Below are positions 1 to 59,800 of a DNA stretch of 64,000 nt, piece after piece. The notes beneath the pieces are model-generated. The model was not told the origin of the DNA, ran no database searches, and saw nothing but the letters and a program-made list of their open reading frames with translations. Position 1 is the stretch's first letter. The number at the start of each line of letters is the position of its first letter. Origin of the DNA: Candidatus Levyibacteriota bacterium (GTDB taxonomy: Bacteria > Patescibacteriota > Microgenomatia > Levybacterales > UBA12049). The stretch covers positions 66,209 through 130,208 of the forward strand of contig JACOXT010000003.1 of NCBI GenBank assembly GCA_016182235.1, written 5' to 3'. The position numbers were made by a program, and so were the translations under genes.

Positions 1-905
1 TAATTATAGCAGATGAGATAGAAGGCGAAGCATTAGCGACTTTAGTTGTAAATAAATTAAGGGGAACATTTAACACAATCGCAATTAAAGCTCCCGGATT
101 TGGAGACAGGCGCAAGGAAATGCTTGAAGATATCGCTATTCTGACCGGCGGAGCTGTTATCTCAGAAGATACAGGGCGTAAGTTTGAAAATGTGACAATT
201 GAGGATTGCGGACGAGCAGATAAGGTGTGGGCGGATAAAGAAAATGCACGAATTATTGGCGGAAAGGGAGAAGCCGGAAAAATAAAAGCAAGAATTGCTC
301 AGACAAGACGCGCAATTGAAGAGACTACATCTGATTTTGATAAAGAGAAATTACAGGAAAGATTGGCAAAACTAGCTGGCGGAGTCGCTGTTATAAATGT
401 TGGAGCTGCGACAGAAGTTGAAATGAAAGACAGGAAAGAAAGAGTTAATGATGCAGTGTCGGCAACAAAGGCAGCTTTGGAAGAAGGTATTGTTCCGGGA
501 GGAGGAGTGTCGCTTCTTCGTGCAAGAAAGGCTCTTCTAAAACTTAAAAATAGTCTGGCGTTGGATGATGAAAAGATTGGCGTAGATATTCTTTATGTCT
601 CACTTGCAGATCCTGCAAGATGGATCGCAAAAAACGCGGGAGCTGATGAAGGATGGGTTGTGAAGCATTTGGAAGATTCAAAAATTGCCGATTATGGTTT
701 TAACGTTATGACAATGGAGTTTGGATCAATGTTGGCCTCCGGAATTGTTGATCCTGCAAAAGTAACCCGTTCTGCAGTACAAAACGCTGCAAGTATTGGA
801 ATGATGGTATTGACAACAGAAGCTCTAATTACCGATCTTCCTGAGAAAAAAGAAGCCGCAATGCCAGGAATGCCTCCAGGGGGCATGGGCGGAATGGATT
901 ACTAA
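1..905 (+). CDS. groL: Chaperonin GroEL, C-terminal part (5' end outside window)
   Basis: The frame of ORF 120..905 stays open back to base 3 ([50 protein letters not shown]...). This is textbook GroEL sequence ending in the Gly/Met tail [14 protein letters not shown]. Confidence 0.97.
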
Positions 906-918
906 TCTTCTCTTCGTC

Positions 919-948
919 ATCCTGAACTCGTTTCAGGATCTTCTTTTT
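919..948 (+). terminator. Hairpin ATCCTGAA-ctcgt-TTCAGGAT plus T-rich tract; probable groEL terminator built from a dispersed repeat
   Basis: Perfect 8-bp stem 919-926/932-939 followed by cttcttttt. The same element recurs at 18756-18776. Confidence 0.6.
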
Positions 949-974
949 GACAAAACAATTTAATATGATATAAT
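947..974 (+). promoter_or_regulatory. Sigma70-like promoter of the proB leader
   Basis: TTGACA 947-952, 16-nt spacer, extended -10 TGaTATAAT 966-974. Confidence 0.65.
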
Positions 975-980
975 CTGTTG

Positions 981-1248
981 TACAGTTTAGTTATAAAGCG
1001 TTTGAGTTTAGTTTCCTGCTAAACAAGCTGATTGCGAAAAGCAATACGGAAGCAAACCGTAAAATATAAGCAAAGCGTGTCGGCAAAGCGGAGCGCTTAC
1101 TAAATAAGAGTTATCTTGTTTAACGTTTGCTCCCCGTCATTGCGGGGATTTTTTATGGCAAGATAGCTAAAGCAAGGTGGTATCACGGGTACAGACCGTC
1201 CTTGCAAGAATCTAACATTTTGTTGGGTTTTTGTAAGGGCGGTTTTTT
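981..1248 (+). promoter_or_regulatory. T-box riboswitch leader (antiterminator/terminator switch), probably tRNA-Pro responsive
   Basis: The T-box sequence AAGGUGGUAUCACGG (1174-1188) is close to the consensus AGGGUGGUACCGCGG. Helix A1 is 1172-1177/1200-1205, the 7-nt bulge UGGUAUC is 1178-1184, and helix A2 is 1185-1188/1196-1199. A competing terminator pairs 1196-1205 with 1233-1242 and is followed by U6 at 1243-1248. A Stem III-like hairpin lies at 1132-1147. Confidence 0.8.
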
Positions 1249-1271
1249 ATCGCCTGAAAGGGGAGTTAATT

Positions 1272-2036
1272 ATGGGAAATCATCAAGAAAGAGAAATAGG
1301 ATTTCATTTAGAGCAAGAAAGGTTTGTTACCAGAAGAATGGTTGTTAAAATAGGAAGCAGCACTATAACTGGCAACACGGAGAATCTTGATGTTAATTTT
1401 ATGGAAAACATCGCCAGACAAGTCAGCTTACTATTTAATCAGGGCATAGAGGTCATGATAGTGACTTCAGGCGCTGTTATAAGTGGAAAGAGAGGTCTAG
1501 GTAGAGTTGATACAGTTCTTGATAAGCAAGTAGCTGCTCTGTATGGACAACCAGAGTTAATTAGCGAGTGGAGAAAAACTTTAAACAATAACGGAGTTAA
1601 AAAGGTGGGACAATTGTTGGTTACGGACATTGATCTTAGGAATGTCAAGACAATTTTAAGCAAATCTTTGCATTTTGGAGTAGTCGTAGTAAATGCAAAC
1701 GATCCTGTTAATAATTACGAGATGAAACAATTCTTAGTTTCTGCAGATAATGATAGATTAGCAGGATTTATTGCAAAGGAAATAGATGCTGATACGTTAC
1801 TTCTCCTAACAGACGTAGATGGAGTTTTAGATAAAAGTGGAAAAGTTATCAATAATTTCTCTACAAAAGAAGAAATAGTAATCTTTTCTGCATCAAGTCT
1901 TGGAACTGGAGGTATGTCTTCAAAAATTCAAGTCGCTCAGGAATTTATCGGAAGAGCAATTATTGCTAATGGAAGATCTGAAAATGTTTTATTAAAAGTT
2001 GCTAGGGGAGAAGAAGTTGGAACACAATTCCATTAA
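1272..2036 (+). CDS. proB: Glutamate 5-kinase (short form, no PUA domain)
   Basis: Amino-acid-kinase motifs VVKIGSSTITG, VTSGAVISGK, NANDPV, ADNDRLAGFIA, LLLLTDVDGV and GTGGMSSKIQVA are present. The SD aaaggggag lies 6 nt before ATG 1272. Confidence 0.85.
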   Translation: MGNHQEREIGFHLEQERFVTRRMVVKIGSSTITGNTENLDVNFMENIARQVSLLFNQGIEVMIVTSGAVISGKRGLGRVDTVLDKQVAALYGQPELISEWRKTLNNNGVKKVGQLLVTDIDLRNVKTILSKSLHFGVVVVNANDPVNNYEMKQFLVSADNDRLAGFIAKEIDADTLLLLTDVDGVLDKSGKVINNFSTKEEIVIFSASSLGTGGMSSKIQVAQEFIGRAIIANGRSENVLLKVARGEEVGTQFH

Positions 2037-2368
2037 AATAATTTAGTTCCTATTTTAGCGTCTCTGTCAGGACGTACCAGAACAACTTTTCCTTCCTCGT
2101 TTGCAACTCCGACTGTTAAGACTTCCGACATAAAGGGACCAATTTGTTTTGGGGGGAAATTTACAACACCCATAACCAAAATTCCTTCTAATTCTTCTTT
2201 GTTATAAAGATCAACAACTTGAACACTTGATTTCTTGATTCCAATTTCTGGACCAAAATCAATAGTCAGTTTATATGCGGGTTTTCTAGCTTCTGGAAAG
2301 TCCTCAACTTCTATAACTTTTCCAACCCTAATATCAACTTTTTCAAAATCACTATAGTTTATTTGCAT
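2033..2368 (-). CDS. Stand-alone tRNA-binding domain protein (CsaA/Trbp111-like)
   Basis: MQINYSDFEKVDIRVGKVIEVEDFPEARKPAYKLTIDFGPEIG... is the OB-fold tRNA-binding domain also found at MetRS C-termini. The MetRS in this window lacks that domain. Confidence 0.85.
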   Translation of the reverse strand: MQINYSDFEKVDIRVGKVIEVEDFPEARKPAYKLTIDFGPEIGIKKSSVQVVDLYNKEELEGILVMGVVNFPPKQIGPFMSEVLTVGVANEEGKVVLVRPDRDAKIGTKLF

Positions 2369-2375: not shown

Positions 2376-2384
2376 ATTATATCA
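2376..2384 (-). promoter_or_regulatory. Extended -10 (TGaTATAAT) 7 nt upstream of the csaA-like ATG; leaderless-type promoter
   Basis: The minus strand reads tgatataat-tttaatc-ATG. The -35 region falls inside the groEL-tail relic. Confidence 0.5.
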
Positions 2385-2446
2385 TGAAAAAAGATGCTGC
2401 AATGCGGGGAATGCCTCCAGGGGGCATGGGCGGAATGGACTACTAA
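2384..2446 (+). pseudogene. Displaced relic of a groEL 3' end ([20 protein letters not shown])
   Basis: By hand alignment, 63 nt align with groEL 843-905 at 56/63 identity, in the same orientation and frame, with its own TAA. Confidence 0.85.
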
Positions 2447-2451: not shown

Positions 2452-3354
2452 TTAATTAGATGGGGCTTTCATCCTCTTTACTCTATAGCGTCTGTAGAGA
2501 ATATAGATTAGAATAACTGCCGCAATCAATGGAGAATAGACTGCGAGCCAGATGAGGGCTTCAGCTCCAATCCTTAAATTGTCCAAAAGACTTCTTACTG
2601 CATATTTAAAGACAACACCTGGACGGAATGCCTTATCTGGAGTGTAAGGAAGCGCGAGTTCATCGGTTGAAAGGTAAATTGTGATCTTTGACAACTGCGC
2701 GTTTTTCTCGATTGCCTGCTGTTGTCCCCTGAGCGCGTCAATCTGGTCTTGCAAATTAATAAGCTCTCTTTGAACAGTTAAAATATCTTGAACATTAACT
2801 GCTTTATCTAAAATATCCTCAAACTTCACCTGCGTTTTTCTCAAAGTTGCTAATCTTGCTTCTATATCAGTATATTCTTGTGTTACATCGGTACCAACTA
2901 AGTTTTCACTAGTTACTTTAACTGCCAAATTTCTAAAGTAAGAAAGTGTTTGATCTAACTTATCAGTAGGCACGCGTACGGTAATGCTTGCAAAAGGAGA
3001 CTCAGTCGGTCTTGTATAGGATGTGTAAACCATATATCCGCCGTTATCTTTTACATAGGAAAGAATTTGATCACCGGTTTGGCGTACATCCTGAACAAGA
3101 AGAGATATGTTAGATTCTTGTATTACTACTCGATTGCTGGAAACATCAAAACTCTCGATAGACTTTGATTGGGAAAATTCTGGAGCGACTCCACCAATTC
3201 CAGCTTGCGGTAGAGCTTGGGGGTAATCTATATTTTGAAGTGTTCTATATTGAGAAAAAGGAGTGATGCCATTGTTTTTGAGATAAAGATAAATTATTAC
3301 AACAAGAAGAGTGATTATTAACTTGTGTGTTTTAACCCAACTAATTAGCGCCAT
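2452..3354 (-). CDS. DUF4349-like membrane-anchored protein
   Basis: It has an N-terminal TM segment, a coiled-coil region (EARLATLRKTQVKFEDILDK...LINLQDQIDALRGQQQAIEKNAQ) and a C-terminal TM segment, which is typical DUF4349 layout. ATG 3354 is preferred over the ORF-track start 3408 because a promoter sits between them. Confidence 0.75.
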   Translation of the reverse strand: MALISWVKTHKLIITLLVVIIYLYLKNNGITPFSQYRTLQNIDYPQALPQAGIGGVAPEFSQSKSIESFDVSSNRVVIQESNISLLVQDVRQTGDQILSYVKDNGGYMVYTSYTRPTESPFASITVRVPTDKLDQTLSYFRNLAVKVTSENLVGTDVTQEYTDIEARLATLRKTQVKFEDILDKAVNVQDILTVQRELINLQDQIDALRGQQQAIEKNAQLSKITIYLSTDELALPYTPDKAFRPGVVFKYAVRSLLDNLRIGAEALIWLAVYSPLIAAVILIYILYRRYRVKRMKAPSN

Positions 3355-3361
3355 TAATCTT

Positions 3362-3390
3362 AATATAATACTGTAGTTTGTAATTTGCAA
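3362..3390 (-). promoter_or_regulatory. Promoter TTGCAA-17-TATATT, 7 nt upstream of ATG 3354
   Basis: The minus strand reads ttgcaa attacaaactacagtat tatatt aagatta ATG. Confidence 0.55.
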
Positions 3391-3428
3391 TAGCCTATAA
3401 AAGAGCATCTGTTATAATATTTTGATTG

Positions 3429-4268
3429 ATGAAAAAGGTTATGCTGCTTACTATTCCACTAGTTGTGGCGGTAATTGTTTTTTTTGCCGTCTTATTTTAT
3501 ATAAACGAAAATTCTGCAAAAGGAGCGCTAAATGTCACTTCTGAGCCCAAAAGTGAGGTCTATTTAAATAGTAAATTGGTTGGTGATACTCCGCTTTGTT
3601 TATGCGAGCCTCCTCAAATGCTTGCCATTGGAGAGTATTCTGTCAAACTTATTCCCAAAGATACAGGTTTTAAACCTTTTGAAGAGAAAATTACAATCAA
3701 TAAATCTACTCTTACATCTGTGGAGAGAATTTTTTCCAAAGAAGAGGATAGGTCTGAAGGAACCGTAGTAACCTTGTCGAGTCTACCTAACAAAAGAGAT
3801 ATTGAGATTTTGGCGGAATCAGTACCCTTAGGAGCGAATGTTTTTTTGAACAATAGTCCAATTGGCAAAACGCCACTGCTTTTGAAAAAAGTAAGCGAAG
3901 GAGACCACGATCTTAGAATTATTCAGGAAGGATTTAAAGACAAATTAATAAAAATTAATACAGCATTAGGCTATAGACTTACTTCAAGGGTTTTTTTAGG
4001 AATCAGTGATTTGGCTAATAATCTTGCAACTCCATCAGGAGAAGTTGCTTCTTCTTCGGCAAAAGTTACTCCAACAATTTTAATACTTGATACGCCTACA
4101 GGATTTTTGAGAGTTAGGGAAAGTACCTCTACAGCCTCCTTAGAGATTGGTAGGGTTCTTCCCGGAGAAACCTATGAACTTTCGGATGAGAAAAGCGGTT
4201 GGTTTGAGATACAATTTGATGATGAAAAAAAAGGTTGGATAAGCAGTCAATATGCAGAGAAGCAGTAA
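3429..4268 (+). CDS. Membrane-anchored protein with two PEGA-like domains and a C-terminal bacterial SH3-like domain
   Basis: It has an N-terminal TM segment, PEGA-like segments (SEPKSEVYLNSKLVGDTPL; VPLGANVFLNNSPIGKTPLLL) and the C-terminal segment FLRVRES...GWFEIQFDDEKKGWISSQY. An extended -10 TGtTATAAT at 3410-3418 lies 10 nt before ATG 3429. Confidence 0.7.
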   Translation: MKKVMLLTIPLVVAVIVFFAVLFYINENSAKGALNVTSEPKSEVYLNSKLVGDTPLCLCEPPQMLAIGEYSVKLIPKDTGFKPFEEKITINKSTLTSVERIFSKEEDRSEGTVVTLSSLPNKRDIEILAESVPLGANVFLNNSPIGKTPLLLKKVSEGDHDLRIIQEGFKDKLIKINTALGYRLTSRVFLGISDLANNLATPSGEVASSSAKVTPTILILDTPTGFLRVRESTSTASLEIGRVLPGETYELSDEKSGWFEIQFDDEKKGWISSQYAEKQ

Positions 4269-4270: not shown

Positions 4271-5215
4271 TTACGAACCTAGGAAGTAGATTATAGCAAT
4301 TACGAGAACTGCCCAGATTATAGCGGCTGTTAGGAGCGGTTTATCTGAGAGGAGTACTCTTTCCGGGCTTTCACCCTCGCGTTTCTCATAAATATCCTGC
4401 AGATAGCGCATAAGACCATAAACAACCGGGATAATTGTGATCATAAGCCACTTTCTTTGAAAAAATGCCGGAAGAAAATCTGGCAGAAGGACGCTTATTC
4501 CAAGCTTGAATCCGACTGGGTTTTCCAAAAAAGTAAAAAGCGCGTAAGAGACGAAAGTCGAAGTTGCAAATATGGACGCATAGACATCAAGGAGTCTTTC
4601 GGAATAATGTGACAATGTTTTCCTAATATCTGCTATATTTAGTGATTTATTTTGGGAAACAAGCGTTAGTTCGGATCTTCGTTTGCCAATAGCTAAGAAC
4701 AGAGAAAGTGATATGGTTGTGAGAAGTAACCAGACGGAAATATGAAATCCTCCAGCAAACTCTCCGGCGTAAACTCTTAGTATGTAGCCCGAAGCAATTG
4801 CAAGAATATCAACAACCGGAATTGCTTTTAGGACTGTTGAGTAGTAAAGCTGTATTAATAAATATATAACCGTTGACGCGAAGAATGCCGGGGTTACTGT
4901 AAAAGCTATAACTAAGGAGACAGTTGTCAGTAACACCGCAACTACCAAGGCATAAGGCACAGATAAATCTTGGTGAGCCAGTGGACGGAATCTTTTAAAG
5001 GGATGGAGTCTGTCTTTTTTTATATCAAAGATGTCGTTAACTATATATATTGCAGAGGAGAGTATGCAAAAAACAAAAAAAGCAATTAGTACTTTTTGTA
5101 AAGATGTCCAGTCAAAAAGTTCTCCTGAGAATATTATTGCGGCAAATATTGCAACATTTTTTATCCATTGCCTTGGCCTTAGAAGTTTTAAAGTATTAAA
5201 TGCTATTTTTATCAT
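4271..5215 (-). CDS. UbiA-family polyprenyl-phosphate phosphoribosyltransferase-like protein (DPPR synthase-like)
   Basis: RPRQWIKN, NDIFDIKKDRLHPFKRFRPLA (NDxxDxxxD) and a polytopic membrane profile. Confidence 0.8.
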   Translation of the reverse strand: MIKIAFNTLKLLRPRQWIKNVAIFAAIIFSGELFDWTSLQKVLIAFFVFCILSSAIYIVNDIFDIKKDRLHPFKRFRPLAHQDLSVPYALVVAVLLTTVSLVIAFTVTPAFFASTVIYLLIQLYYSTVLKAIPVVDILAIASGYILRVYAGEFAGGFHISVWLLLTTISLSLFLAIGKRRSELTLVSQNKSLNIADIRKTLSHYSERLLDVYASIFATSTFVSYALFTFLENPVGFKLGISVLLPDFLPAFFQRKWLMITIIPVVYGLMRYLQDIYEKREGESPERVLLSDKPLLTAAIIWAVLVIAIIYFLGS

Positions 5216-6266
5216 AGGTGTTTTTCAGAGCCCGATGTAAAAAGAGCAATGTTCCACCTACCAGAATTAGAAGCATTATAATCGCAAAAAGTTTGGCTTT
5301 GCTTGATAAAACTAATGCGAGCGCTCCTAATATACCAGAAACAATCCAATAAAACAATGCAATACGTCTTTGTCCCATCCCAAGACTTAAAAGTAAATGG
5401 TGAAGATGTTTTTTATCGTGCCAAAAAGGCGAGCGTCCCGCTAGAAGACGTCGAATAATTGTGAATATCCCATCGGTCATAGGTACACCCATTACTAAAA
5501 TAGCAGTTGCCAATTTTGCTCCAGAAAGAATAGATGCAGCACTTAACAAAAGATATATTGCAGTTGCCCCGTAGCCAGGGAATATTTTTGCAGGATAGAA
5601 ATTGAAAATAAGAAACCCCATAGATGCGCCTGCAATTATGAAAGAAAGAGTCGCAGTTGTTGTATTTGTTTGATCAAGAGGTGAAAATCTAAGACTTAAA
5701 ACCCCGATGATAACTGCCGATATGGCAACAATTCCAGGCATTTGTCCGTCCACTCCCTTACTCCAGTTCAACATATTCATTACCCAAACTATCCAAAGCA
5801 TTGCAAGAATATCAGAAAGAACGAAAACTTGGTGAAGTCCAAAAAAATCTAAAGGGATTTTAATTATATCTAGAAAAATCACTCCTCCAAAAGGATTGGT
5901 GATAAACGGAATACTTATTCCGCTCCCAACAACAATTCCTGACACGACTATGTTTGTAATGAAACGCGCATATGGAGAAATATCGTACTTGTCATCGATA
6001 ACGCCCACAATAAGAGCAATTAAGGATGCGACGAAAAGTGCAATCACTATTTTTGTTAACGGCAGAAGAAGAATTCCGGTTATAAAAACTCCAATAAAAA
6101 GGGGAATTCCTCCGCCCCTTGGAATGGGTTTGGAGTGGATGACCCCTGGGTGTTTATGTCGATTCGGATCATCCAGTAGTCCAACCTTTTTAATCAAGGA
6201 TATAGATATAAAAGTGACTATTGTTGTTACGAGGAAGGAGAATATAAGCGCAATTATAAAAACCAT
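5196..6266 (-). CDS. Glycosyltransferase family 4 (MraY/WecA-type polyprenyl-phosphate sugar-1-phosphate transferase)
   Basis: It carries DDKYDISP, NMLNWSKGVDGQ and a polytopic membrane profile. It is too short and divergent to call MraY itself. Confidence 0.8.
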   Translation of the reverse strand: MVFIIALIFSFLVTTIVTFISISLIKKVGLLDDPNRHKHPGVIHSKPIPRGGGIPLFIGVFITGILLLPLTKIVIALFVASLIALIVGVIDDKYDISPYARFITNIVVSGIVVGSGISIPFITNPFGGVIFLDIIKIPLDFFGLHQVFVLSDILAMLWIVWVMNMLNWSKGVDGQMPGIVAISAVIIGVLSLRFSPLDQTNTTTATLSFIIAGASMGFLIFNFYPAKIFPGYGATAIYLLLSAASILSGAKLATAILVMGVPMTDGIFTIIRRLLAGRSPFWHDKKHLHHLLLSLGMGQRRIALFYWIVSGILGALALVLSSKAKLFAIIMLLILVGGTLLFLHRALKNTYDKNSI

Positions 6267-6633: not shown

Positions 6634-8089
6634 TATTTATTTCTACCTTTTTGGAATAGTTTATTAATGAAAAAGGGATTGGTTTTTGATTTGACATATT
6701 TACAATAAATTTGGGCCTTGTGCTTTCCAATGCATTTTTCGTGGCAGATATGCCATCTTTATAATTTGTCATATGATAGCCAACAACATATTTTGTAAAA
6801 GGCGGAACATCTATCAATTTATACACCTGAGCATTATTGCCCCAGACAAAGACCTTGTCATTTGTCTCTACCCTTGGCTTAATAAAGAGTGCTATTTCGT
6901 AATCTGAAGGAGTATTTCTATCAAAAAACGCCTGATAACTAAAAGTACTTTTTTGGCCTATTATATAGGAAACAAAATTTGGGTAGTATAAAAATGATTT
7001 CGTAAAGCTGTAAAGTCTAAAATTTTTAATTGTAATTAGGAGTACTACAAACAAAAGTAGCAATATTATTTTTTGATATTTTTTCGCCGAGAAAATAAGG
7101 CCTACCAAAAGCGATAAACTGGGAAGTAGAACTAAAACATAATGGGTATATGGTCGTTGAGAGAAAAAGGCATTAAATAAGGAAAAAGCAAGCCAGATGA
7201 ATATAAAGATCATCGTTTTGTCTAAAACATGCCTCTTAGAGTAAATATATGTAACAGATCCTAGCAAGAGAAGGCCTTTTATAAAAAGGAGAACTGGCAA
7301 GTTCCAAATTTTGTTTCCGTAACCTACATATGGGATATTCGTAAAAAGCGTTGCGTTTAGGAAATCTAAAAATGCCCCTTTTATAAGAAAAAATATTGAA
7401 GTTATAACTATGGGAAGAAGAAATCCTGCAAAAAGAAGCTTAAACTCTTTAAAAATAGTTTTTATATTTTTAATAGAAATATGTTTTGAAATAACCAAGA
7501 AAACAAAAATTGCGGCAAAATCAAAAGTGGCAACAATCTTAACAAGAAACGCAAGGCTAAGAAGAATCCCAATAATAAAAAGTATATAGGATTTTTGGTT
7601 TGTTTCAAGAGGTTTTCTAGTCATATGGACAGTTAGAAAAGCGGCTATGATAATTGGAAGAAGCATGAAGTTTTCAGCGTTAGCAATATTTCCTTCGATA
7701 AGGGGAAGACCAAAAAGAAAAGCAAATATTGAAGTTGAAAGATAAATAGGAATATTAGAATTTTTAAAACTGTAGAAAAGTTTTTTTGCAAGAAGGAAAA
7801 AAAATATGATAGACAAAATACCAAAAGTTGAAGATAAAAGTTTTATAAGAAACAGATTGGACTGGAAGATGGAATAAATAATATATAATAATGGAGGTTT
7901 GTTGTCGAATATATCACGATATAATAACAGGCCATTATTTAGAGACATTCCCACAGCATGATATACCCCTTCGTCTCCGTACCAATAAGGTTCAAAAAGT
8001 GATGGAAATCTAAGAAGATAGAACAAGAAAGAAGTAATTATGATAAACCAAAATTCAGTGTTTTTTTCAAGCACCTTAAGGATTTTCAT
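6605..8089 (-). CDS. Polytopic membrane glycosyltransferase, GT39/GT83 (ArnT/PMT)-like
   Basis: It has the N-terminal loop EPYWYGDEGVYHAVGMSL with a DE motif, more than 10 TM helices and a soluble C-terminal domain. Confidence 0.65.
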   Translation of the reverse strand: MKILKVLEKNTEFWFIIITSFLFYLLRFPSLFEPYWYGDEGVYHAVGMSLNNGLLLYRDIFDNKPPLLYIIYSIFQSNLFLIKLLSSTFGILSIIFFFLLAKKLFYSFKNSNIPIYLSTSIFAFLFGLPLIEGNIANAENFMLLPIIIAAFLTVHMTRKPLETNQKSYILFIIGILLSLAFLVKIVATFDFAAIFVFLVISKHISIKNIKTIFKEFKLLFAGFLLPIVITSIFFLIKGAFLDFLNATLFTNIPYVGYGNKIWNLPVLLFIKGLLLLGSVTYIYSKRHVLDKTMIFIFIWLAFSLFNAFFSQRPYTHYVLVLLPSLSLLVGLIFSAKKYQKIILLLLFVVLLITIKNFRLYSFTKSFLYYPNFVSYIIGQKSTFSYQAFFDRNTPSDYEIALFIKPRVETNDKVFVWGNNAQVYKLIDVPPFTKYVVGYHMTNYKDGISATKNALESTRPKFIVNMSNQKPIPFSLINYSKKVEINNASIYERIL

Positions 8090-8095
8090 AGAGCC

Positions 8096-9589
8096 TTATA
8101 GTTTCTCCGTGACTTTATACTCAAGCTTCTTTCCGAACATTAGTCGAGTATGAGAGATTAAGGCGGGAAGAGTGGAAAGAAATAATCCAACTATCGGTAA
8201 AAATACAAATTCTAATGGAAAAAGATATTTTCTAATTTTAGACGAGGTTATATTTTTTGGTCTGTTTTGAAAGTCAATAAATATCATAGCAAGAGTTGCG
8301 ACTAGACAAAAAGTTAAGATAAGCCCAGCCAAACTTGGCAGTTTGTATCCGAGAGTGGTTCTTGAAAAAACTGGATTTATAAATGTAATTATGTTTGCGG
8401 CTACTGTTATGATAAACCAATTGACTGGCCAAAGAAAGTGGTCTAATAGTACATAAAAGAGCATCACTGTTTTTCTAAAGAACGGAACATTGGGAACAGT
8501 AAACCACCACTTAATAAATAGAGGATCGTCAGACACGCCCCATGACCATCTCTGTTCTTGATGATATTTGTTTTTTAAACTTTTCAAATAGTTTGATGAA
8601 TAAGGAGAATCCATAGATGTTCTTAGGAATATTGGTTTTGTCCACACGTTTCCATGTAACATGTAAAACGCCTTAAAAAAGATTCTGTAGTCTTCGGGAA
8701 TAACGTCTGTATCCCAGAAACCTATTTTTTTTAAGAGATTAAAAGATAAAGAATATGTGGAGTTTGATATTAGCCTGTCGCCTTGGACTAATACCGCAGT
8801 TCTCCAAAGACTGCCGAAAAAAGAGATAATTCTAATTGGGGCTGGCACACGCCAGAAATTATTATAATTTACATTTGCCGACTGCCAGAATTTATTGTAA
8901 GGAAGGGGATCATTTAAGAATTCAAAAGTGAGATATGAAAAGTATTGTCTATCGAACATAGAATCTGCATCAACAGAAGAAACAGTGGCATAATTTATAT
9001 CTATAATATTCGTTTCTACGAGTTTTTGGTAAGCCTCTTTTCCTGCATAGGCTTGGTTAGAGGATTTTCCTTTTACTTCACCAGTGATATCGGGATGAAA
9101 TGTCGCAAGAATCCCTCCAAAGATATTTTTAAACTCGTTCACTAAAATATTTGCTTTTTCTTCGGCATGGCTTTCTCTTTGTTCCATTCCCAAAACAACA
9201 AAGAGACGTTTCGTGGGAAATGTCTGAGTGGAGATAGATCGTAATGTCTCTCTAAGTTTTTGTAAATTTTCTGTATAATTTGGAATTATTATGACATGCG
9301 TAACTTTTTCAAAATTTTTGATTTTTCTTGCTTTTTCCAGCCAATTTTCTGATTCTCCCTTTCTTATTTTCCTCGAAGCAATAAAAGCGGAAATGGCAAG
9401 AGAAAAAGATTTATAGAGCCAATAAACATCAAAAAAAAGAATAAAATAAGCAACAACGAAAGGAATAATAAGAGATCCCCAAATCGGAAAAAGAATTAAA
9501 GTCCACGAAACCAACGCTGGCATCATTTCTAAAATTCTCTTTGTTTTTGTTGGATAACGCGTAAATATTTTATGGAAAAAGTTAGTCAT
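8096..9589 (-). CDS. Membrane-embedded family 2 glycosyltransferase with QxxRW motif (processive synthase-like)
   Basis: VTHVIIIPNYTE, SVDADS and HQEQRWSWG are present, with TM helices at both ends. Confidence 0.75.
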   Translation of the reverse strand: MTNFFHKIFTRYPTKTKRILEMMPALVSWTLILFPIWGSLIIPFVVAYFILFFDVYWLYKSFSLAISAFIASRKIRKGESENWLEKARKIKNFEKVTHVIIIPNYTENLQKLRETLRSISTQTFPTKRLFVVLGMEQRESHAEEKANILVNEFKNIFGGILATFHPDITGEVKGKSSNQAYAGKEAYQKLVETNIIDINYATVSSVDADSMFDRQYFSYLTFEFLNDPLPYNKFWQSANVNYNNFWRVPAPIRIISFFGSLWRTAVLVQGDRLISNSTYSLSFNLLKKIGFWDTDVIPEDYRIFFKAFYMLHGNVWTKPIFLRTSMDSPYSSNYLKSLKNKYHQEQRWSWGVSDDPLFIKWWFTVPNVPFFRKTVMLFYVLLDHFLWPVNWFIITVAANIITFINPVFSRTTLGYKLPSLAGLILTFCLVATLAMIFIDFQNRPKNITSSKIRKYLFPLEFVFLPIVGLFLSTLPALISHTRLMFGKKLEYKVTEKL

Positions 9590-10380
9590 ATCGAAAATAT
9601 CTTTTTTACATTTTTGGTTGTTTGATTTCTTAATTTGTCAAAATTTATACCTCTTAGTTTTGAGATAAATTCACCAATAATTATAACATATTCCGGCCTA
9701 TTTTTGACTCCACGCATAGGCTCAGGTGTCAAGAATGGACTGTCAGTTTCCGTTACAATTCTATCAAGGGGAGCATAAGAAACTAGCTCTTTTAGCTCAA
9801 CTGTTTCCCCTGGAGCAAGGCCACTATAAGTTATATTTCCGTCAAAGCCAATATAGAATCCAAGGTCTAACACTTTTTTGAGGGAATCCAAATCTCCTGA
9901 CATACAGTGGAACATGCCAGGGGGATTTAGGAGATATGGTTTATGATTTTCTAGTATATCGAGTATATCTTTGCCTGCGAGGCGGTTATGGATTTGCAAT
10001 GGTAATTTTAGCTTGTTGGCAAGTATAATTTGCTTTATAAATGTTTCTTTTTGAAGCTTAGGATCAACTATTGAGTTTGATTTGTATCTAAAATAATCTA
10101 TTCCTATCTCGCCAATTGCCACAACTTTTGGATTTTTCGCCAGCTTTTCAAGCTCAAGCTCCCATCCAGCCTCAAGTTTGTCCGCATGGTGGGGGTGAAC
10201 TCCAACTATTGCGTAAAGTTGGGGGTATTTTTGAGCCATCTCAACAGCTCTAAAACTTGAATCAATCTTTGTTCCTACATTAATAATTTTCGTTACCCCA
10301 GCTTTAAACGCACTCTTAATAACTTCATCGTAGTCTTTTTCAAAAGCATGAAAGTTCAAATGACAATGAACGTCAATCAT
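9586..10380 (-). CDS. tatD: TatD-family metal-dependent hydrolase
   Basis: MIDVHCHLNF..., GVHPHHA, GEIGIDY, ETDSPFLTP. Confidence 0.9.
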   Translation of the reverse strand: MIDVHCHLNFHAFEKDYDEVIKSAFKAGVTKIINVGTKIDSSFRAVEMAQKYPQLYAIVGVHPHHADKLEAGWELELEKLAKNPKVVAIGEIGIDYFRYKSNSIVDPKLQKETFIKQIILANKLKLPLQIHNRLAGKDILDILENHKPYLLNPPGMFHCMSGDLDSLKKVLDLGFYIGFDGNITYSGLAPGETVELKELVSYAPLDRIVTETDSPFLTPEPMRGVKNRPEYVIIIGEFISKLRGINFDKLRNQTTKNVKKIFSI

Positions 10381-12927: not shown

Positions 12928-12929
12928 TC

Positions 12930-49868: not shown

Positions 49869-49900
49869 AATACTTAAATAATATATATTATTTAAGTATT
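49869..49900. terminator. Perfect 32-bp AT-rich palindrome (bidirectional terminator candidate)
   Basis: The sequence is aatacttaaataatat|atattatttaagtatt. It lies between the convergent 49562 gene and the ancestral nth end. Confidence 0.55.
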
Positions 49901-49964: not shown

Positions 49965-50018
49965 TATTGGTGAAATCGAATACGGAATAAGGATAGGTAT
50001 GGTACAATATAAAAACTT

Positions 50019-50216
50019 ATGAGAAAGATTAGCGTAAATAAAATTATAAAAAACCAGAATAAATATGTTGTTTTAACAAAAGATAAATCAGATATTTTAG
50101 TATCAGGCGCTTCAATTCAGGAGGTTGAAAAAAAGCTAAGTAAGCTAAGCATAAAAGACGTTGTTATAACCTACATCCCGCCGGTAAATAAGTATCTTTC
50201 TCCGCTATGTCGGTAA
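50019..50216 (+). CDS. Small protein (65 aa) upstream of and overlapping the aspartic-protease-like gene
   Basis: An ORF whose ATG lies 10 nt after an extended -10 TGgTACAAT (50000-50008). No motif was recognised with confidence. Confidence 0.5.
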   Translation: MRKISVNKIIKNQNKYVVLTKDKSDILVSGASIQEVEKKLSKLSIKDVVITYIPPVNKYLSPLCR

Positions 50217-50632
50217 TAAGATTTGACTATACGCCTGAAGTTTTTATTAATCCCAAAACTCAAAAAGTTGACTACATTTATAGACCGCTTGTGGATGTTA
50301 GACTTTCTTATAAGCATAATTTTGGTAAAAATATTATTTCATGTTTGCTTGATTCGGGTGCGGATAAAAATTTATTTCCAGCAAGTTGGGGTGAATCTGT
50401 TGGGATAAACATAAAGAAAGGTGAGTCAGTTCGCCATTATGGAATTGGCGCCAATGATTTGATTGCCTATAGACATAAAGTAATGTTGTATATTGGTTCG
50501 TTTTCTTTTGAAGCATATTCTGATTTTAGTTTTGAGCAAAGTTTTCCACTTCTTGGCAGAGAGGGTTTTTTCAAATACTTCAAGGAAATTGTTTTTAATG
50601 AAAAAGGAAGATTTGTAAATCTTAAATATTAA
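50207..50632 (+). CDS. Retropepsin-like (clan AA) aspartic protease family protein
   Basis: The signature LLDSGADKNLFP (D-S-G-A) sits in a 141-aa protein, the size of single-lobe retropepsin-like proteins. Confidence 0.65.
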   Translation: MSVIRFDYTPEVFINPKTQKVDYIYRPLVDVRLSYKHNFGKNIISCLLDSGADKNLFPASWGESVGINIKKGESVRHYGIGANDLIAYRHKVMLYIGSFSFEAYSDFSFEQSFPLLGREGFFKYFKEIVFNEKGRFVNLKY

Positions 50633-50738
50633 ACGAAGCATTTCATCTACTTGGAGGTAGATCCTCGATTATATATTTTCTATAGTACAAGAAGATTCCG
50701 ATACGGGATCGGTGTAGATAAAAGTGAAAGGTAAAAAA

Positions 50739-51359
50739 TTATCTTTTAATATAATTTCTCAGTGGGCAATTGGAGTGTTTACAGTGAGCTGGACAATAGG
50801 TGCGGCCGTAAGCGATCATTCTATTTGTAAAATCAAACCACTCCTCACGCGGTAAAATTTTCATCAAGTCTTGTTCGATTTTCTCTGGATTTTTGTTATT
50901 TGTAAGTCCAAACAAGCGAGAAAGCCGTGTAGCATGAGTATCAACTGCAATACCTTCAGTTATTCCATATAAATTTCCCAAAATAATATTTGCTGTTTTT
51001 CTGCCCACTCCCGGCAGTTTGGTTAGCTCGTTCATTGTTCTTGGAATTTGACCCTTGTATTTTTCATCAATTATTCTCGCAGTTTCTTTTATAAATTTTG
51101 CTTTTTGCCGAAATAGTCCAAGTTGACTTAAATCTTTTTCAAGTTCGCTTAAATTTATGTTTTTATAGTTCTTAATTTCTTTATATTTCTCAAAAAGTTT
51201 TTCAGTTACCTCGTTTACTTTTTTGTCCGTATTTCTAGCTGATAAAATGACTGTAGTTAAAAGCTCAAAAGGAGTTGTGTAATTAAGAATTGTTTTAGAG
51301 TTAGGAAACAATTCTTTTAAAATCTTCAAAATTTCTTCTATTTCTTGTTTTTGACTCAT
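50739..51359 (-). CDS. nth: Endonuclease III
   Basis: HhH-GPD (LTKLPGVGRKTANIILG), VDTHATRLS and a C-terminal Cys cluster CPAHCKHSNC. ATG 51359 is preferred because TGtTATAAT lies 7 nt upstream of it. Confidence 0.9.
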   Translation of the reverse strand: MSQKQEIEEILKILKELFPNSKTILNYTTPFELLTTVILSARNTDKKVNEVTEKLFEKYKEIKNYKNINLSELEKDLSQLGLFRQKAKFIKETARIIDEKYKGQIPRTMNELTKLPGVGRKTANIILGNLYGITEGIAVDTHATRLSRLFGLTNNKNPEKIEQDLMKILPREEWFDFTNRMIAYGRTYCPAHCKHSNCPLRNYIKR

Positions 51360-51366
51360 ATCAGGC

Positions 51367-51375
51367 ATTATAACA
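51367..51375 (-). promoter_or_regulatory. Extended -10 TGtTATAAT, 7 nt before nth ATG 51359
   Basis: The minus strand reads tgttataat-gcctgat-ATG. Confidence 0.55.
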
Positions 51376-51504
51376 TTTGACCCCTTGACATTATAGAGCG
51401 ATATGTGATATAAGAATAACACTCTATAAATATATAAAGAAAAACAATAAGGCTAGTGTTGCCTTTGTTTTTTTGTTGGTAGAGAGACTACGACATATTC
51501 TCAA

Positions 51505-54500
51505 ATGCCAAAGACTGATAACAAAACTGACTCTTTCAGAATCAACTGGGGGAAAGAATATCCCTTTTTACCAAAACTAGATCTTCTTGCCATACAGAAA
51601 AATTCATATAAGTGGTTCATCGAAGAGGGAATCGGCGAAATTCTTAAAGAAATATCTCCTATAGATGATTTTACGGAAAAAAATTGGAGACTGGAGCTTA
51701 AAAGCTATAGAATTGGTAAGCCCGCTATCTCTCCAGAAATTGCCCTTTCAAAGGGTCTAATTTATGACGCCCCGTTATATGTAAAAGCGATTCTTATTAA
51801 TAAAAAAACAAATGGGACAATTAGTCAGGAAGTTTTTTTGGGCGATATTCCCCAAATGACAGAAAGAGGAACCTTCATTATAAATGGAGTTGAGCGTACG
51901 GTGGTTAATCAGCTTGTTCGTTCTCCCGGGGTCTTTTTTACAGCAATTCAAGATAATGTTACTGGCAAAAAATTATATACAGGAGAAATAAGACCTATTC
52001 ATGGATCATGGCTTGAGTTTTCAACTACAAGGTACGAGACGATAACGGTTAAGATAGACAGAAGAAGAAAATTTTTGGCAACGACCTTTTTAAGGGCTAT
52101 TGGAATTTCAACCAATGAAGAAATAAGTGAAGTTTTTAAGAAGCTTGAGATAGAGAATGGCACTTCTTTTATAGAGAATACTTTACAAAAAGATGAAACT
52201 GGAAATTCGAAGGATGCCGTAGTTGAGATATTCAAAAAAATGCATCCTGGAGAGCCAATTGTTTTTGAAAAGGTAAAAGAAAATTTCGACGGCTTGTTCT
52301 TTAACGCTCGCCGCTATGACTTGGGTAAGGTTGGTAGATATAAAATAAATAAAAAGCTCAAAGATTTTCCAGGCTTCTCTATGTCATTGGAGCACACTCT
52401 AACTAGGGGAGATGTCTTAGGAACAATAAGCTATTTAATAAAACTGGCTCAAGGATATGATGGAGTTGACGATATTGACAGTCTTGCCCATAGGCGGGTT
52501 AGGAGGGTTGGAGAATTGGTTGCCACAACAGCATTTAGAGTCGGAGCATTAAGACTCGAACGCAGCATCAAAGAAAGAATGAGTCTTATTCAGCCAGACG
52601 TGCCCCCCTCGATAGGCAGCCTTATAAATGCAAAGCCGATCATGGCCTCAATTAATGAATTTTTTAGAACATCTCAGCTTTCAACAATATTAGATCAGAC
52701 AAATCCACTTTCTGAGATTGACAATTTGAACAGGTTAACCGTGATGGGAACAGGCGGTATTAGTCGAGAAAGAGCAGCTTTCTCAATAAGAGATATTAAT
52801 AGCTCTCAATACGGAAGAATATGCCCAATTAGAAGCCCAGAAGGACCAAATATTGGATTAGTTACTTACTTGGCACTTTATTCTAAGATAAATGAATACG
52901 GATTTTTGGAAAGTCCTTATAGAAAAGTAGTTAAAATTAAAAAAGGAAATGATATTTTTGTTAAAGCAACAAATGAAATTATTTATTTGAGTGTGGATGA
53001 CGAAAGGCAATATCATATTACTCATGCGGGAGTATTGTCAAACGATACCATAAATGGCGATCGCGTTCCAGTTAGATATCAAGGTGGATTCAAAGAAGTA
53101 GAGAAAGAAAAAGTTGATTTTGTTGATGTTGTCCCAAGGCAGGTTGTAGGGACATCCGCATCTCTTATTCCATTTGTTTCCCATGATGAAACAAATAGGG
53201 CTCTCATGGGTACTCACATGCAGTGTCAGGCAGTGCCTCTTGTTGCCCCAGCTAGTCCGGTGGTTGGTACAGATATGGAGAAAGTAATTGCCTCAGTTAT
53301 GGGTAGAATAATTAGAGCCCCATTCGATGGAAAGATAATATACGCTGACGCTAATAAGGTAACAATAAAAGGCAGCAAGAAGGACGAAGAAGAAACATAC
53401 GACATAGAGTCATTTAAAAGAACATCGCAGGCAACATCTTATACGCAAAAAACCATGGTTGTCGAGGGACAGAAAGTTAAAAAAGGAGATATTTTGGTTG
53501 ATGGACCCTCTTCAGATAAAGGTGAATTGGCGCTTGGGCAAAATTTATTAATTGCTTATGCTTCTTTAGATGGTTTGGGATACGAAGACGCAGTTGTTGT
53601 TTCGGACAGACTTGTTCGTGAAAATGTTCTTTCATCGATTCATATTGAAAAACATGAGGCATCGGTAGTTGAGACTAAGCTTGGTCCGGAAGAAACCACG
53701 AGAGACATTCCAAACATTTCCGAGGAAGATCTAGCCAATCTTGATGAGGAAGGAATAATTGTTGTAGGAAGTGATGTTGTTCCGGGAGATATACTTGTTG
53801 GCAAGATAGCTCCAAAAGGAGAAACAGAGTTAACAGCCGAAGAGAGACTTCTTCGAGCAATTTTTGGAGAGCAGGCAAGAGAAGTAAGAGATACTTCCTT
53901 AAGGATGCCGCATGGTGAACGGGGAACAGTTATAAGTGTTCAAGTATTGGATAGAAGAAAAGGAGATGAACTCGAGCCTGGAACTTTGAGAAAAATTATT
54001 ATTGAAGTCGCACAATTTAGGCATGTTGTGGTTGGAGATAAGCTTGCAGGCAGACATGGAAATAAAGGAGTAATTTCTAAGATCTTGCCTGTTGCGGATA
54101 TGCCTTGTCTTGCAGATGGCACGCCGATTGATATAGTAATATCTCCCATAAGCGTATTGGCGCGAATGAACTTAGGCCAGCTACTTGAAGCACATCTTGG
54201 ATGGGCGTGTTCAAAGTTGAATAAAAAAGTGGGAATTCCTGTCTTTGAAGAGATTGGTGAGGAAAGAATTGTCGCATCTCTTAGGATGGCTAATCTTCCA
54301 CACGATGGCAAGACAGTTTTATATGATGGTAGGACTGGAGAGCCTTATGAAAATCCAGTCGTTGTTGGAATAGAGTATATTATGAAGCTTATCCATATGG
54401 TTGAAGATAAAACCCACGCAAGAAGTACTGGTCCTTATTCTTTGGTTACTCAGCAGCCGCTTGGAGGCAAAGCACAAATGGGAGGACAGCGTTTGGGAGA

Positions 54501-58587: not shown

Positions 58588-58593
58588 TACGTT

Positions 58594-58666
58594 AATAAAT
58601 ACCAATAATCCAATAAGCAAATAAACAAATGAATTGGATTATTTGAAATTTGAATATTGGTTTATT
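58594..58666 (+). terminator. Long imperfect AT-rich hairpin between rpoC and rpsL
   Basis: aataatccaat (58604-58614) pairs with attggattatt (58633-58643). The outer arms are aataaatacc/ggtttatt. There is no clear T-run. Confidence 0.35.
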
Positions 58667-58683
58667 ACGACTGAAAGGAGTCT

Positions 58684-59175
58684 ATGCCGACTTTATCGCA
58701 ACTTTCCAGAAGAGGTAGATCTAGAAAAATAAAAAAGAGTAGATCCGGAGCTTTAAGAAGGCTTTTTAACGCGAAGGACAGAATATACAAAAATATAGTA
58801 GCTCCTCAAAAGCGGGGAGTAGTTACACTTGTCAAGACAATGACTCCCAAAAAACCAAACTCAGCACTTAGAAAAGTTGCTCGCGTTAAGCTCTCGAATA
58901 AAATGGAAGTTACAGCATACATCCAAGGTATAGGACATTCTCTTTCCGAACATGGGATAGTTCTTGTTCGCGGAGGAAGAGTTAAAGATTTGCCAGGAGT
59001 AAAATATCATATTGTTCGGGGAAAACTTGATCTTTTGGGAGTCGAAGGAAGAAAAAAGGGAAGGAGCAAATACGGAGCAAAGAAAGGTCAAGCAGGTAGT
59101 TCGCCGAGGGTGGTAGCGGGAACTGCTCCAAACGCAACTTCCGCAAAACCAGCAGCACCGGCGGCTGCTAGTTAA
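58684..59175 (+). CDS. rpsL: 30S ribosomal protein S12 with an internal insertion and an Ala/Pro-rich C-terminal extension
   Basis: [36 protein letters not shown], 163 aa. The SD aaaggag is present. Confidence 0.95.
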
Positions 59176-59208
59176 AAGTTAATTTTGATCGAACGAAAGT
59201 GAGCGATT

Positions 59209-59682
59209 ATGAGACATAAACAGGCACAAAAAAGGGAAATAGAAGGAGACGTAATCTACAAAAATAAATTAGTCTCAAAGTTTATTAACTATTTAATGCG
59301 TGACGGTAAGAAAACTGTAGCTCAAAAAGTGCTATATGGGTCTTTTGATCTCCTAAGTCAAAAAAATCAGGATCCAATTTCTGTTTTTGAGAAAGCCATT
59401 CAAAATGTCGGACCAAGACAGGAAGTGAAGGCAAAAAGAGTAGGGGGAGCATCCTACCAAATACCCATGGAAGTGAGGGGAGAAAGAAAAGTTTCTTTGG
59501 CGATAAGATGGATTGTTGATGCGGCAAGGCGTCGTTCAAATAAAGATTTTCACATATTCGAAGAAAAATTAGCAGCCGAACTTACAGACGCTTCAAATGA
59601 TCAAGGCGAAGCAATTAAGAAAAGAGATACAGCGCTTCGAATGGCGCAGGCGAATCGAGCATTTAGTCACTTTAAATGGTAA
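59209..59682 (+). CDS. rpsG: 30S ribosomal protein S7
   Basis: LVSKFINYLMRDGKKTVAQKV, QIPMEVRGERK, ending MAQANRAFSHFKW*. Confidence 0.96.
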   Translation: MRHKQAQKREIEGDVIYKNKLVSKFINYLMRDGKKTVAQKVLYGSFDLLSQKNQDPISVFEKAIQNVGPRQEVKAKRVGGASYQIPMEVRGERKVSLAIRWIVDAARRRSNKDFHIFEEKLAAELTDASNDQGEAIKKRDTALRMAQANRAFSHFKW

Positions 59683-59770
59683 TCTAATGCTCGATGAAGT
59701 CTCTCTGAAACCGCTCCATGAGCCGTATTCGAATAGAATTGAAAAGGCGAATGGTAAGGTTAATGGGACA

Positions 59771-59800
59771 AATCGCGCCTTCTCCCACTTCAAATGGTAA
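59771..59800 (+). pseudogene. Displaced relic of an rpsG 3' end (NRAFSHFKW*)
   Basis: Nine codons plus the stop encode the same peptide as rpsG 59653-59682. Five codons differ and all five changes are synonymous. Confidence 0.7.

Follow-up and report, generated by a model that had tools for sequence, protein, structure and literature searches.

How does foreign DNA enter the chromosomes of bacteria of the Candidate Phyla Radiation (CPR), or Patescibacteria? These organisms have tiny genomes with few recognizable mobile elements, yet they exchange genes extensively. The question is raised by a 64,000-nt stretch of DNA from a Candidatus Levyibacteriota bacterium (contig JACOXT010000003.1, positions 66,209 to 130,208), referred to below as the window, whose nearest genomes are those of Candidatus Levybacteria (Microgenomates group, CPR). 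Within it, the four conserved genes groEL, metG, nth, and rpsG are each followed by an insert and then by a second copy of the gene's own tail, a configuration that we read as a recombination scar. A first-pass annotation had listed five such cases; these four lie where it placed them, but the fifth, at pnp, proved to be of another kind. Integration of DNA from related donors, anchored by homology and requiring no recombinase, would explain the four scars, and we give this reading a probability of roughly one half.

At the groEL locus, the functional 3' end (843-905, + strand; Pfam Cpn60_TCP1) is repeated beyond insert 1 (906-2383) as a tail relic at 2384-2446 (+); positions 845-905 and 2386-2446 align with 92% identity over 61 nt and share 17 of 19 amino acids. 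The metG tail, located on the minus strand at 10863-10893, recurs at 10398-10428 (-) beyond insert 2 (10429-10862, -), with 28 of 31 nucleotides conserved; both copies encode SQKPLFPRI followed by a stop codon, and the three differences are silent. The nth repeat is longer than initially proposed: the functional 3' end (50739-50837, -; FDFTNRMIAYGRTYCPAHCKHSNCPLRNYIKR plus stop) and the relic beyond insert 3 (49981-50738) at 49888-49980 (-; FDFTN, a 5-codon gap, then SRNFCPGHCRHLNCPLRNYITKILK plus stop) align from FDFTN to CPLRNYI with a tblastn E value of 7e-9. Finally, the rpsG 3' end (NRAFSHFKW plus stop; 59653-59682, +) is found again at 59771-59800 (+), beyond insert 4 (59683-59770). All nine amino acids and the stop are identical in the two copies, as are 23 of the 30 nucleotides, and the seven nucleotide differences are all silent.

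In in-register alignments with 80-nt flanks, none of the four pairs showed homology past the stop codon, where it broke off precisely. Identical blocks measured 32 nt (groEL), 21 nt (metG), 13 nt (nth), and 9 nt (rpsG). Direct repeats of 30 to 93 nt that contain the target-gene 3' end thus lie in the same orientation on both sides of the inserts, as attachment (att) repeats and the products of Campbell-type insertion do; a target-gene 3' end repeated at both insert ends is textbook for integrative elements. The relics had also been described as keeping the reading frame of the parent gene. This is meaningless for a detached relic, and the frame of the groEL relic differs from that of groEL.

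Chance similarity was assessed by comparing the last, first, and middle segment of each open reading frame (ORF) with its own locus in six frames, in the window and in related loci (L-numbers designate these comparison loci from related genomes or, for L003, L004, L023, and L024, Logan contigs). With 30-residue segments, strong matches between non-paralogues were exclusively C-terminal, on the same strand, and downstream. With 9-residue segments from 306 ORFs (at least 7 of 9 identities, distance of at most 3 kb), the last nine amino acids gave seven same-strand downstream matches, six of them non-paralogous, and the window's share is exactly the four claimed pairs. The same-strand controls within 3 kb yielded no match for the first nine amino acids and a single, upstream match for the middle nine. 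Further tail relics were present in relatives, namely, of rpsG in L009 and L013 (one shared event), of nth in L008, and of a DUF192 gene in L017, where the insert is a Fic-family gene.

Could the duplications have been created by the assembly, with strain variants, or a chromosome and an episome, merged via shared tail k-mers? The groEL pair is open to this suspicion: its 32-nt identical block is ambiguous at k = 31, where a chromosome plus a circle is k-mer-equivalent to the integrated form. In addition, the rpsG insert contains a point, 59746, at which two Logan contigs end. At 9 to 21 nt, however, the metG, nth, and rpsG blocks fall short of what could join separate paths in a k = 31 graph, and Logan contigs from four sequencing runs were 100% identical to the window across three relic regions. 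Single contigs from different runs span metG-Nudix-relic-tatD (7989-12833; L003 and L004 are identical to the window at the Nudix insert) and relic-cassette-nth (49871-52284; L024), and a third region, csaA-relic-DUF4349, is covered by 1880-2982 (L023). This coverage excludes the rpsG relic junction, and the contig ends at 59746 suggest a population variant there. As like scars also occur in genomes assembled by other groups (L008, L009, L013, and L017), we find an assembly artifact barely credible.

The differences between the two copies bear on the origin of the second tail. As the first-pass annotation had pointed out, silent changes dominate. The window rpsG pair shows 5 silent and 0 replacement codon differences, a result never reached in 200,000 simulations of neutral decay of one copy (P < 5e-6), and one of its serines is encoded by AGT in one copy and by TCC in the other, a codon-family switch. 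The rpsG pairs of L013 (5 silent, 0 replacement; P = 3e-5) and L009 (4 silent, 1 replacement; P = 8.5e-5) gave similar results, followed by nth (5 silent, 4 replacement; P = 7e-4), metG (3 silent, 0 replacement; P = 0.01), and groEL (2 silent, 3 replacement; P = 0.05). This excess of silent changes shows that the copies diverged while both were translated, in separate lineages, rather than being decayed in-place duplicates; one copy per pair therefore comes from another lineage, as the first-pass annotation had inferred.

Duplication in place, whether by a long target-site duplication, slippage, or tandem duplication followed by divergence, is thus largely refuted by the substitution pattern. 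Neutral decay cannot account for the rpsG differences with their AGT/TCC serine, and the L013 and nth values point the same way; moreover, a tandem duplication would have left similarity beyond the stops, and there is none. A related proposal is that the relics are still translated or have a regulatory role. Indeed, the groEL relic begins with an ATG, the metG relic precedes the start of tatD by 17 nt and could hold a ribosome-binding region, and an ORF runs from within rpsG through the 88 nt of insert 4 into the relic. However, three of the four relics lack a start codon, the L009 and L013 relics are preceded by an in-frame stop, and the nth relic is visibly decaying, having lost 15 nt and undergone an A-to-G change within CPAHC. 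We consider duplication in place and a retained function, taken together, very improbable.

In the rpsG pair, it is the relic that carries the foreign codons. The codons of the functional tail (CGA GCA TTY AGY) are shared with the closest relatives, L005 and L011, and those of the relic are CGC GCC TTC TCC. Furthermore, the window relic is closer to the relic of L009 (23 of 27 nucleotides identical) than to its own functional tail (20 of 27). A higher-GC donor, suggested by the GC-rich third positions of the rpsG and nth relics, was considered and rejected: functional rpsG tails of relatives use the same C-ending codons, so that the relic indicates a different lineage only. For nth, the three tails are equidistant by nucleotides, and donor and recipient cannot be polarized. 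The GC content at third codon positions of the insert genes (about 0.29) equals that of the rest of the window, which suggests related donors. In addition, groEL tails are hypervariable among relatives whose GroEL proteins are 75 to 85% identical, yet the two window copies are 92% identical. Judging from these comparisons, the donors would be related Levybacteria, and very close ones in the groEL case.

In every testable case, the relic keeps the ancestral spacing to the downstream neighbor. Downstream of the rpsG relic, the sequence is clearly orthologous to what follows the genuine rpsG stop in L011, whereas the 88 nt behind the functional rpsG stop of the window are not. Similarly, the nth relic lies about 60 nt from a convergent gene of 98 amino acids, the same spacing as that of the real nth tail in L005, which provides the unoccupied nth site that had been predicted. 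In L008, the nth relic abuts a convergent UPF0047 gene, as the real nth tails do in seven other relatives, and the insert there measures 95 nt. Unoccupied sites were also found for groEL in L022, for rpsG/fusA in L012, and for rpsG and a peptidyl-prolyl isomerase (PPIase) gene in L011. For groEL, the first-pass annotation had expected the empty site to join groEL to the DUF4349 gene (2452-3408, -; Pfam), whose stop lies 5 nt from the end of the relic and which is convergent to it. An empty site does exist, but with another neighbor: in L022, groEL is followed after 62 nt by the PEGA-SH3 gene (3426-4268 in the window), so that the DUF4349 gene belongs to the variable region. A metagenome scan with DUF4349 returned one locus only (L020), which is non-syntenic.

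The same comparisons show that these slots differ widely in content. In L022, 62 nt separate groEL from the PEGA-SH3 gene; the corresponding interval measures 2.5 kb in the window and reaches 7.8 kb in L021, where it holds unrelated genes and no DUF4349 gene. Between nth and alaS, 0.7 to 8.6 kb were found among the loci compared, with accessory genes for UPF0047, DUF763, FKBP, and MsrB proteins, DNA glycosylases, and restriction-modification systems. The rpsG-to-fusA distance ranges from 9 nt in L012 to about 1.9 kb elsewhere. Differing cassettes without mobility genes hence lie between the same conserved gene pairs, and the groEL, nth, rpsG-fusA, and pnp-Lon positions (the last is described below) are gene-content hotspots. 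An interruption of groEL itself, which many partial homologues seemed to indicate, was dismissed: the L021 gene consists of two adjacent ORF calls, and the other partial copies lie at contig ends.

Two other features of the rpsG surroundings deserve mention. At 59875-60333 (-), a 152-aa protein with a hydrophobic N terminus aligns with no more than the first half of the cyclophilin profile (positions 3-80 of 159); it is kept beside rpsG in L005 and L011 and is probably not a recent pseudogene. Moreover, copies of a 26-nt palindrome (AGTCTAATnnTCTAAATnATTAGACT) at 856-881 and 1335-1360 of L009 and at 770-795 and 1249-1274 of L013 bracket a small gene, a homologue of window 60428-60694, which in these two loci sits between rpsG and the tail relic. 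The palindrome is absent from the window and from the other loci compared (22 loci) and is thus local to L009 and L013.

What do the inserts carry? Pfam and NCBIfam searches identified GroEL, a proB-like amino-acid kinase, CsaA, DUF4349, MetRS, Nudix, TatD, EndoIII, S7, PNPase, and Y1/RAYT-like proteins (RAYT, REP-associated tyrosine transposase; REP, repetitive extragenic palindromic) at the loci in question. Insert 1 contains a T-box-like leader, the proB-like kinase gene (1272-2036, +), and csaA (2033-2368, -). The kinase has the kinase domain only, without a PUA domain, and scores under the NCBIfam cutoff. A T-box had been annotated ahead of it; the match at 992-1206 (+) is sub-threshold (30.4 bits for a gathering score of 93), but the GGUGGUA core is well matched, and most of stem I is absent. 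In this CPR genome, the T-box may exist in a reduced variant. The CsaA protein is genuine (111 aa). MetRS (10863-12284, 473 aa) lacks the C-terminal tRNA-binding domain, of which the CsaA encoded behind groEL is a free-standing homologue. Insert 2 consists of a Nudix hydrolase gene (10462-10866, -; Pfam NUDIX) and a 33-nt spacer. The metG stop overlaps the Nudix start codon (ATGA), an arrangement for translational coupling, which implies that metG and the Nudix gene formed an operon in the donor beforehand.

Insert 3 is a two-gene cassette encoding p65 (50019-50216, +; 65 aa), which weakly resembles DUF5678, and p141 (50207-50632, +; 141 aa), which has a DSGAD motif and resembles retropepsin; distant relatives of p141 match retropepsin-like Pfam families. 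L037, also from Levybacteria, has this cassette with 65% identity between rpsJ and rplC (4810-5426), and a 52% identical relative lies beside a xerC/D-like gene in L043 (357-934); in both loci, the cassette faces a conserved gene end in convergent orientation. Its presence in differing slots (nth, rpsJ, and xerC/D-like) indicates that the cassette is mobile, and it may be a selfish or toxin-antitoxin-like module. In L043, a paralogous aspartyl-protease-like gene is found near the p65-p141 relative.

Insert 4 is non-coding (88 nt, 43% GC), and its surroundings (59660-59890) gave no Rfam match, even in a permissive search. A scar therefore marks recombination, as had been proposed, but not necessarily gene gain, in view of this insert and of the 95-nt nth insert of a relative. 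Within insert 4 lies one of two copies of a relatively high-GC element of about 65 nt, found on opposite strands at 12800-12866 (+), upstream of hrcA, and at 59691-59757 (-), with about 70 to 75% identity and no Rfam match. Logan contigs break in both copies (12833 and 59746), suggesting further copies or variants in the genome. Also upstream of hrcA, at about 12855-12895 (+), the sequence GTCTTCGCCCCAACTGCGAAGACAGTTTGGGGC could form two interleaved, pseudoknot-like helices (GTCTTCGC/GCGAAGAC and GCCCCAA/TTTGGGGC), which had no Rfam match; a permissive Rfam search of 12640-12930 was negative, and no CIRCE element was seen by eye upstream of hrcA.

In agreement with the first-pass annotation, none of the ORFs of the four inserts matched a recombinase in Pfam or NCBIfam. 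A single transposase-like gene (Y1/RAYT) was found, and it belongs to the repeat-free pnp block. All-against-all BLASTP revealed no mobile gene shared among the inserts, and no common element was found upstream of the rpsG relics when the window was compared with L009 and L013. Close relatives on viral contigs were found for neither p141 nor the 249-aa ORF of the pnp block, and for the Nudix protein only the generic Nudix box was matched.

The lack of a recombinase bears directly on the possibility that the tail pairs are attL and attR of site-specific elements with a tyrosine or serine recombinase, each bringing a replacement tail, which lost their integrase along with most of their content or were mobilized in trans. 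Such elements would account for scars situated exclusively at 3' ends, for repeats of 30 to 93 nt, lengths typical of att sites, and for the identical block of 9 to 32 nt in each pair. They would also fit the silent-only differences, since an element-borne tail is translated while integrated, as well as the start of the rpsG events at the same codon in the window and in L009/L013 and the likeness of the relics of different genomes, as seen for those of the window and L009. There is also a precedent in the streamlined genome of Prochlorococcus, the islands of which contain degenerate integrases and partial tRNAs that tycheposons left behind (bioRxiv 10.1101/2020.12.28.424599). Nevertheless, neither an integrase nor a fragment of one is present in the four inserts, and no integrase or other recombinase was seen among the 25 listed of the 46 Pfam families matched by 77 ORFs from the variable regions of relatives. 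The inserts, at 88 to 1478 nt, are far below the size of any autonomous element. Moreover, over the diverged stretch, the functional rpsG copy has native-type codons and the relic foreign ones; an element would here have mimicked sequence 5' of the crossover, which is needless for restoring the gene. Crossover positions, known from two events per gene only, are divided: the rpsG starts agree within 3 nt, whereas 15 nt or more separate the 5' limits of the nth repeat in the window from those in L008. We consider site-specific elements of this kind possible, if somewhat unlikely.

The pnp locus, the fifth case of the first-pass annotation, differs from the other four. The early stop of pnp (28017-30095) is real, but the displaced tail assigned to 31800-31853 is not supported. 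Homology to the pnp gene of L025 ends at 30091, in the last strand of the S1 domain, and the Pfam S1 match covers model positions 2-62 of 74. In Microgenomates PNPases, D(E/D)QGRINLSM comes next, together with a basic extension (about 60 aa) that harbors a conserved HPL(A/S)xQ(F/L)RRE motif (also written HPLxxQ(F/L)RRE); in the window PNPase, both the basic extension and the last S1 strand are lost. When the C-terminal 90 aa of 120 PNPase homologues were used in tblastn, there was no match at 31800-31853 or elsewhere downstream. The proposed relic peptide, IKLSTQEAL, was therefore rejected, its likeness to the end of an S1 domain being generic: with the peptide appended, several PDB PNPase chains match through query residue 91-92, that is, through IKLSTQE, and the one residue-level alignment spanning IKLSTQE is to a ribosomal protein S1 repeat. 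In L025, pnp is followed after 66 nt by the Lon-like AAA gene, which bears out the empty site predicted for this position, and L026 has another gene in the same slot. We thus interpret the pnp locus as an insertion coupled to the loss of about 230 nt of the gene end, with no displaced tail.

From the truncation point on, a replacement block of 1.85 kb (30092-31952) contains a 249-aa ORF without family match (30159-30908, +) and a RAYT-like Y1 gene (31071-31715, -). The annotation of the latter as a Y1 transposase was borne out by the Y1_Tnp match (E = 3.5e-9); the REP_Tyr_transpos score of 52.6 bits is under the cutoff of 80. On both sides of the Y1 gene, at about 31035-31060, 31730-31760, and 31895-31915, lie REP-like hairpins with GTGGGAG, which bracket it as inverted copies (GTGCTCCCAC...GTGGGAGCAC). 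The rpsG relic (CTCCCACTTCAAATGG) resembles one arm of a REP-like hairpin (CTCCCACTTGTCAAGTGG), which is probably a coincidence.

The pnp locus is relevant to homology-facilitated illegitimate recombination (HFIR), which the first-pass annotation had favored for the inserts without a recombinase, beside extensive decay of integrated elements. In its classical form, homology within a conserved gene anchors a linear fragment, the other end of which is joined at a microhomology; HFIR is defined by an insertion with a recipient deletion and an illegitimate junction with 3 to 10 bp of microhomology (PMC3240628). This fits pnp, where homology stops at 30091 and unrelated DNA takes the place of the gene end up to the Lon-like gene, and competence and recombination genes have been reported for the phylum (PMC12455944). 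Even there, the RAYT-like gene with its REP-like hairpins is another possible cause. At the other four loci, the tail is duplicated and nothing is lost, whereas the typical product of HFIR is a recipient deletion of about the size of the insert and not a duplication of the anchor (PMC3240628), and the functional rpsG tail looks vertical rather than donor derived. As an explanation of the four scars, classical HFIR is thus improbable.

The window as a whole has a GC content of 36.9% and closely packed housekeeping genes, including groEL, metG, hrcA-grpE-dnaK-dnaJ, nusA-infB, rpsO-pnp, ftsK, alaS, nth, rpoB-rpoC, and rpsL-rpsG-fusA. No tRNA gene was found in the 64 kb, and Rfam at gathering thresholds gave no match over the whole window. 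AT-rich repeats (AATTTGAAATTTTCAATTT...) occupy the spacers on either side of the infB region (25017-25065 and 27626-27688) and may be associated with promoters or terminators. Four paralogous predicted membrane-anchored proteins are encoded at 18846-19538 (-), 22793-23473 (+), 34778-35929 (-), and 40304-40921 (+). Their shared domain starts with (T/S)xNW(K/Q/I)TY...F(x)(F/L/V)(K/R)YP and has a near-invariant C-terminal (D/T)QILSTF(K/Q/R)F; the family has no Pfam match, and a sortase gene lies at 44084-44734.

The duplications, the foreign origin of one copy, the empty sites, the hotspots, the mobility of one cargo, and the lack of recombinase genes in the inserts are observed; which enzymes act, whether the incoming DNA is circular or linear, and how it enters the cell are inferred. 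DNA from a related Levybacterium would enter the cell with the donor's own last 30 to 90 nt of a conserved gene, followed by the donor's downstream DNA, which may comprise cargo genes or only a spacer of about 90 nt. The incoming DNA would recombine with the resident gene inside the short shared tail. Because the join would fall inside the tail and not beyond it, the tail would then be present twice, one copy completing the gene and the other lying beyond the insert at its ancestral distance from the next gene. A duplicated segment in direct orientation around an insert points to one crossover, made either by a site-specific recombinase or by host recombination on a circle. Such a single crossover with a circular molecule duplicates the homologous segment, as in Escherichia coli lacZ, where recircularized DNA gave duplications of 109 to 950 bp (PMC3240628). 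The geometry could accordingly be that of a single, Campbell-type crossover or, alternatively, of a one-ended homologous event with a second, illegitimate join inside the resident tail. RecA-dependent host recombination after DNA uptake would suffice, with no dedicated recombinase.

The compactness of the genome would then filter the outcomes. With spacers of 5 to 70 nt, joins further downstream would delete or damage the neighboring gene, and joins near 5' ends would part genes from their promoters, so that only events sparing the conserved gene would survive; we propose this selection on the position of the join as the source of the 3'-end bias. We favor a recombinase-free route because neither a recombinase nor a fragment of one is present, the inserts are very small, the donors appear to be close relatives, and Patescibacteria are reported to carry genes for competence and homologous recombination (PMC12455944). 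In this phylum, horizontally acquired genes are, moreover, enriched in ribosomal proteins and groS (PMC12455944).

Several observations weigh against recombinase-free integration. Homologies of 30 to 90 nt with identical blocks of 9 to 32 nt are very short for a RecA-dependent crossover, and the 88-nt and 95-nt inserts are too small to have come in as circles, unless trimming took place afterward. DNA taken up by natural transformation arrives as linear single strands, a form that disfavors Campbell integration. The scan controls showed no relics of 5' ends, an asymmetry that host recombination explains through selection only and site-specific integrases explain directly. The rpsG events of the window and of L009/L013, which start at the same codon within 3 nt, hint at a defined site. 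No tail relics were found beside the p65-p141 cassette in L037 and L043, so that duplication would not be obligatory for its movement. Neither a donor genome nor a circular or empty-site allele was found in the same population. The short homology, the tiny inserts, the lack of 5' relics, and the shared rpsG start would be simpler to understand with decayed or trans-mobilized site-specific elements.

A more far-reaching version of recombinase-free integration is that conserved-gene ends act as portable attachment sites: cassettes flanked by tails would loop out or be taken up and then reenter relatives by host recombination. We regard this extension as distinctly unlikely. If it were true, cargo would hitchhike on the rpsG, nth, groEL, and metG tails in a lineage poor in mobile elements, and tail relics would be a countable record of gene gain in the CPR. 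The scars themselves read out the entry site (the last 30 to 90 nt of conserved genes) and point to related donors that brought their own gene end and to an event that left no recombinase behind. A simple scan of the last 9 to 30 codons against the next few kilobases could measure the frequency, age, donors, and cargo of such events over thousands of genomes. Should host recombination alone be responsible, it would constitute a general way for streamlined genomes to acquire genes, one that has been overlooked; should integrases be responsible, the scars would reveal a family of elements that targets the tails of protein genes in CPR bacteria.

Integrative elements that insert at gene 3' ends, such as tRNA and tmRNA islands, the streptococcal integrative and conjugative or mobilizable elements at rpsI, rplL, rpmG, and guaA, and the Prochlorococcus tycheposons, produce the same 3'-end direct repeat and leave the gene intact. 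As in the window, one copy is the host's and the other incoming, relatives have empty sites, and sites are used repeatedly. Unlike these elements, the window inserts have no integrase, excisionase, or replication gene and measure 0.09 to 1.5 kb instead of several to more than 100 kb; they involve protein-gene tails only, in a window without a tRNA gene, and the boundaries of the nth repeat are not fixed. Campbell insertion-duplication, as in suicide-plasmid mutagenesis (PMC3240628), likewise duplicates the same segment on both sides without a dedicated recombinase. However, the documented segments are 109 to 950 bp long, compared with 30 to 93 nt with mismatches here, no natural circular donor is known, and two of the inserts are too short for circles.

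HFIR of Acinetobacter, Streptococcus pneumoniae, and Pseudomonas stutzeri shares with our cases the anchor in a conserved gene, the lack of mobile-element genes, and its occurrence in competent bacteria. The pnp locus matches it, but its usual product is an insertion with a deletion, and not the tail duplication found here. In the mobile ORFs of fungal and algal mitochondria, a foreign, in-frame replacement 3' end of atp6 or cox is followed by an insert and by the displaced original tail. They are driven by homing endonuclease genes inside the insert, whereas the window inserts have no endonuclease gene. The minimal mobile elements of Neisseria and the hotspots of Oliveira et al. resemble our loci in that one slot between conserved genes is filled, from genome to genome, by varied small cassettes lacking mobility genes; these are, however, exchanged by double crossover in the flanks, with no duplicated gene end. 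In the literature searched, tail-repeat scars together with recombinase-free core-gene hotspots appear to be undescribed, as do a density of four scars in 64 kb and the recurrence of scars at the tails of the same protein genes throughout a CPR lineage, where inserts can be as small as 88 nt and contain no recombinase.

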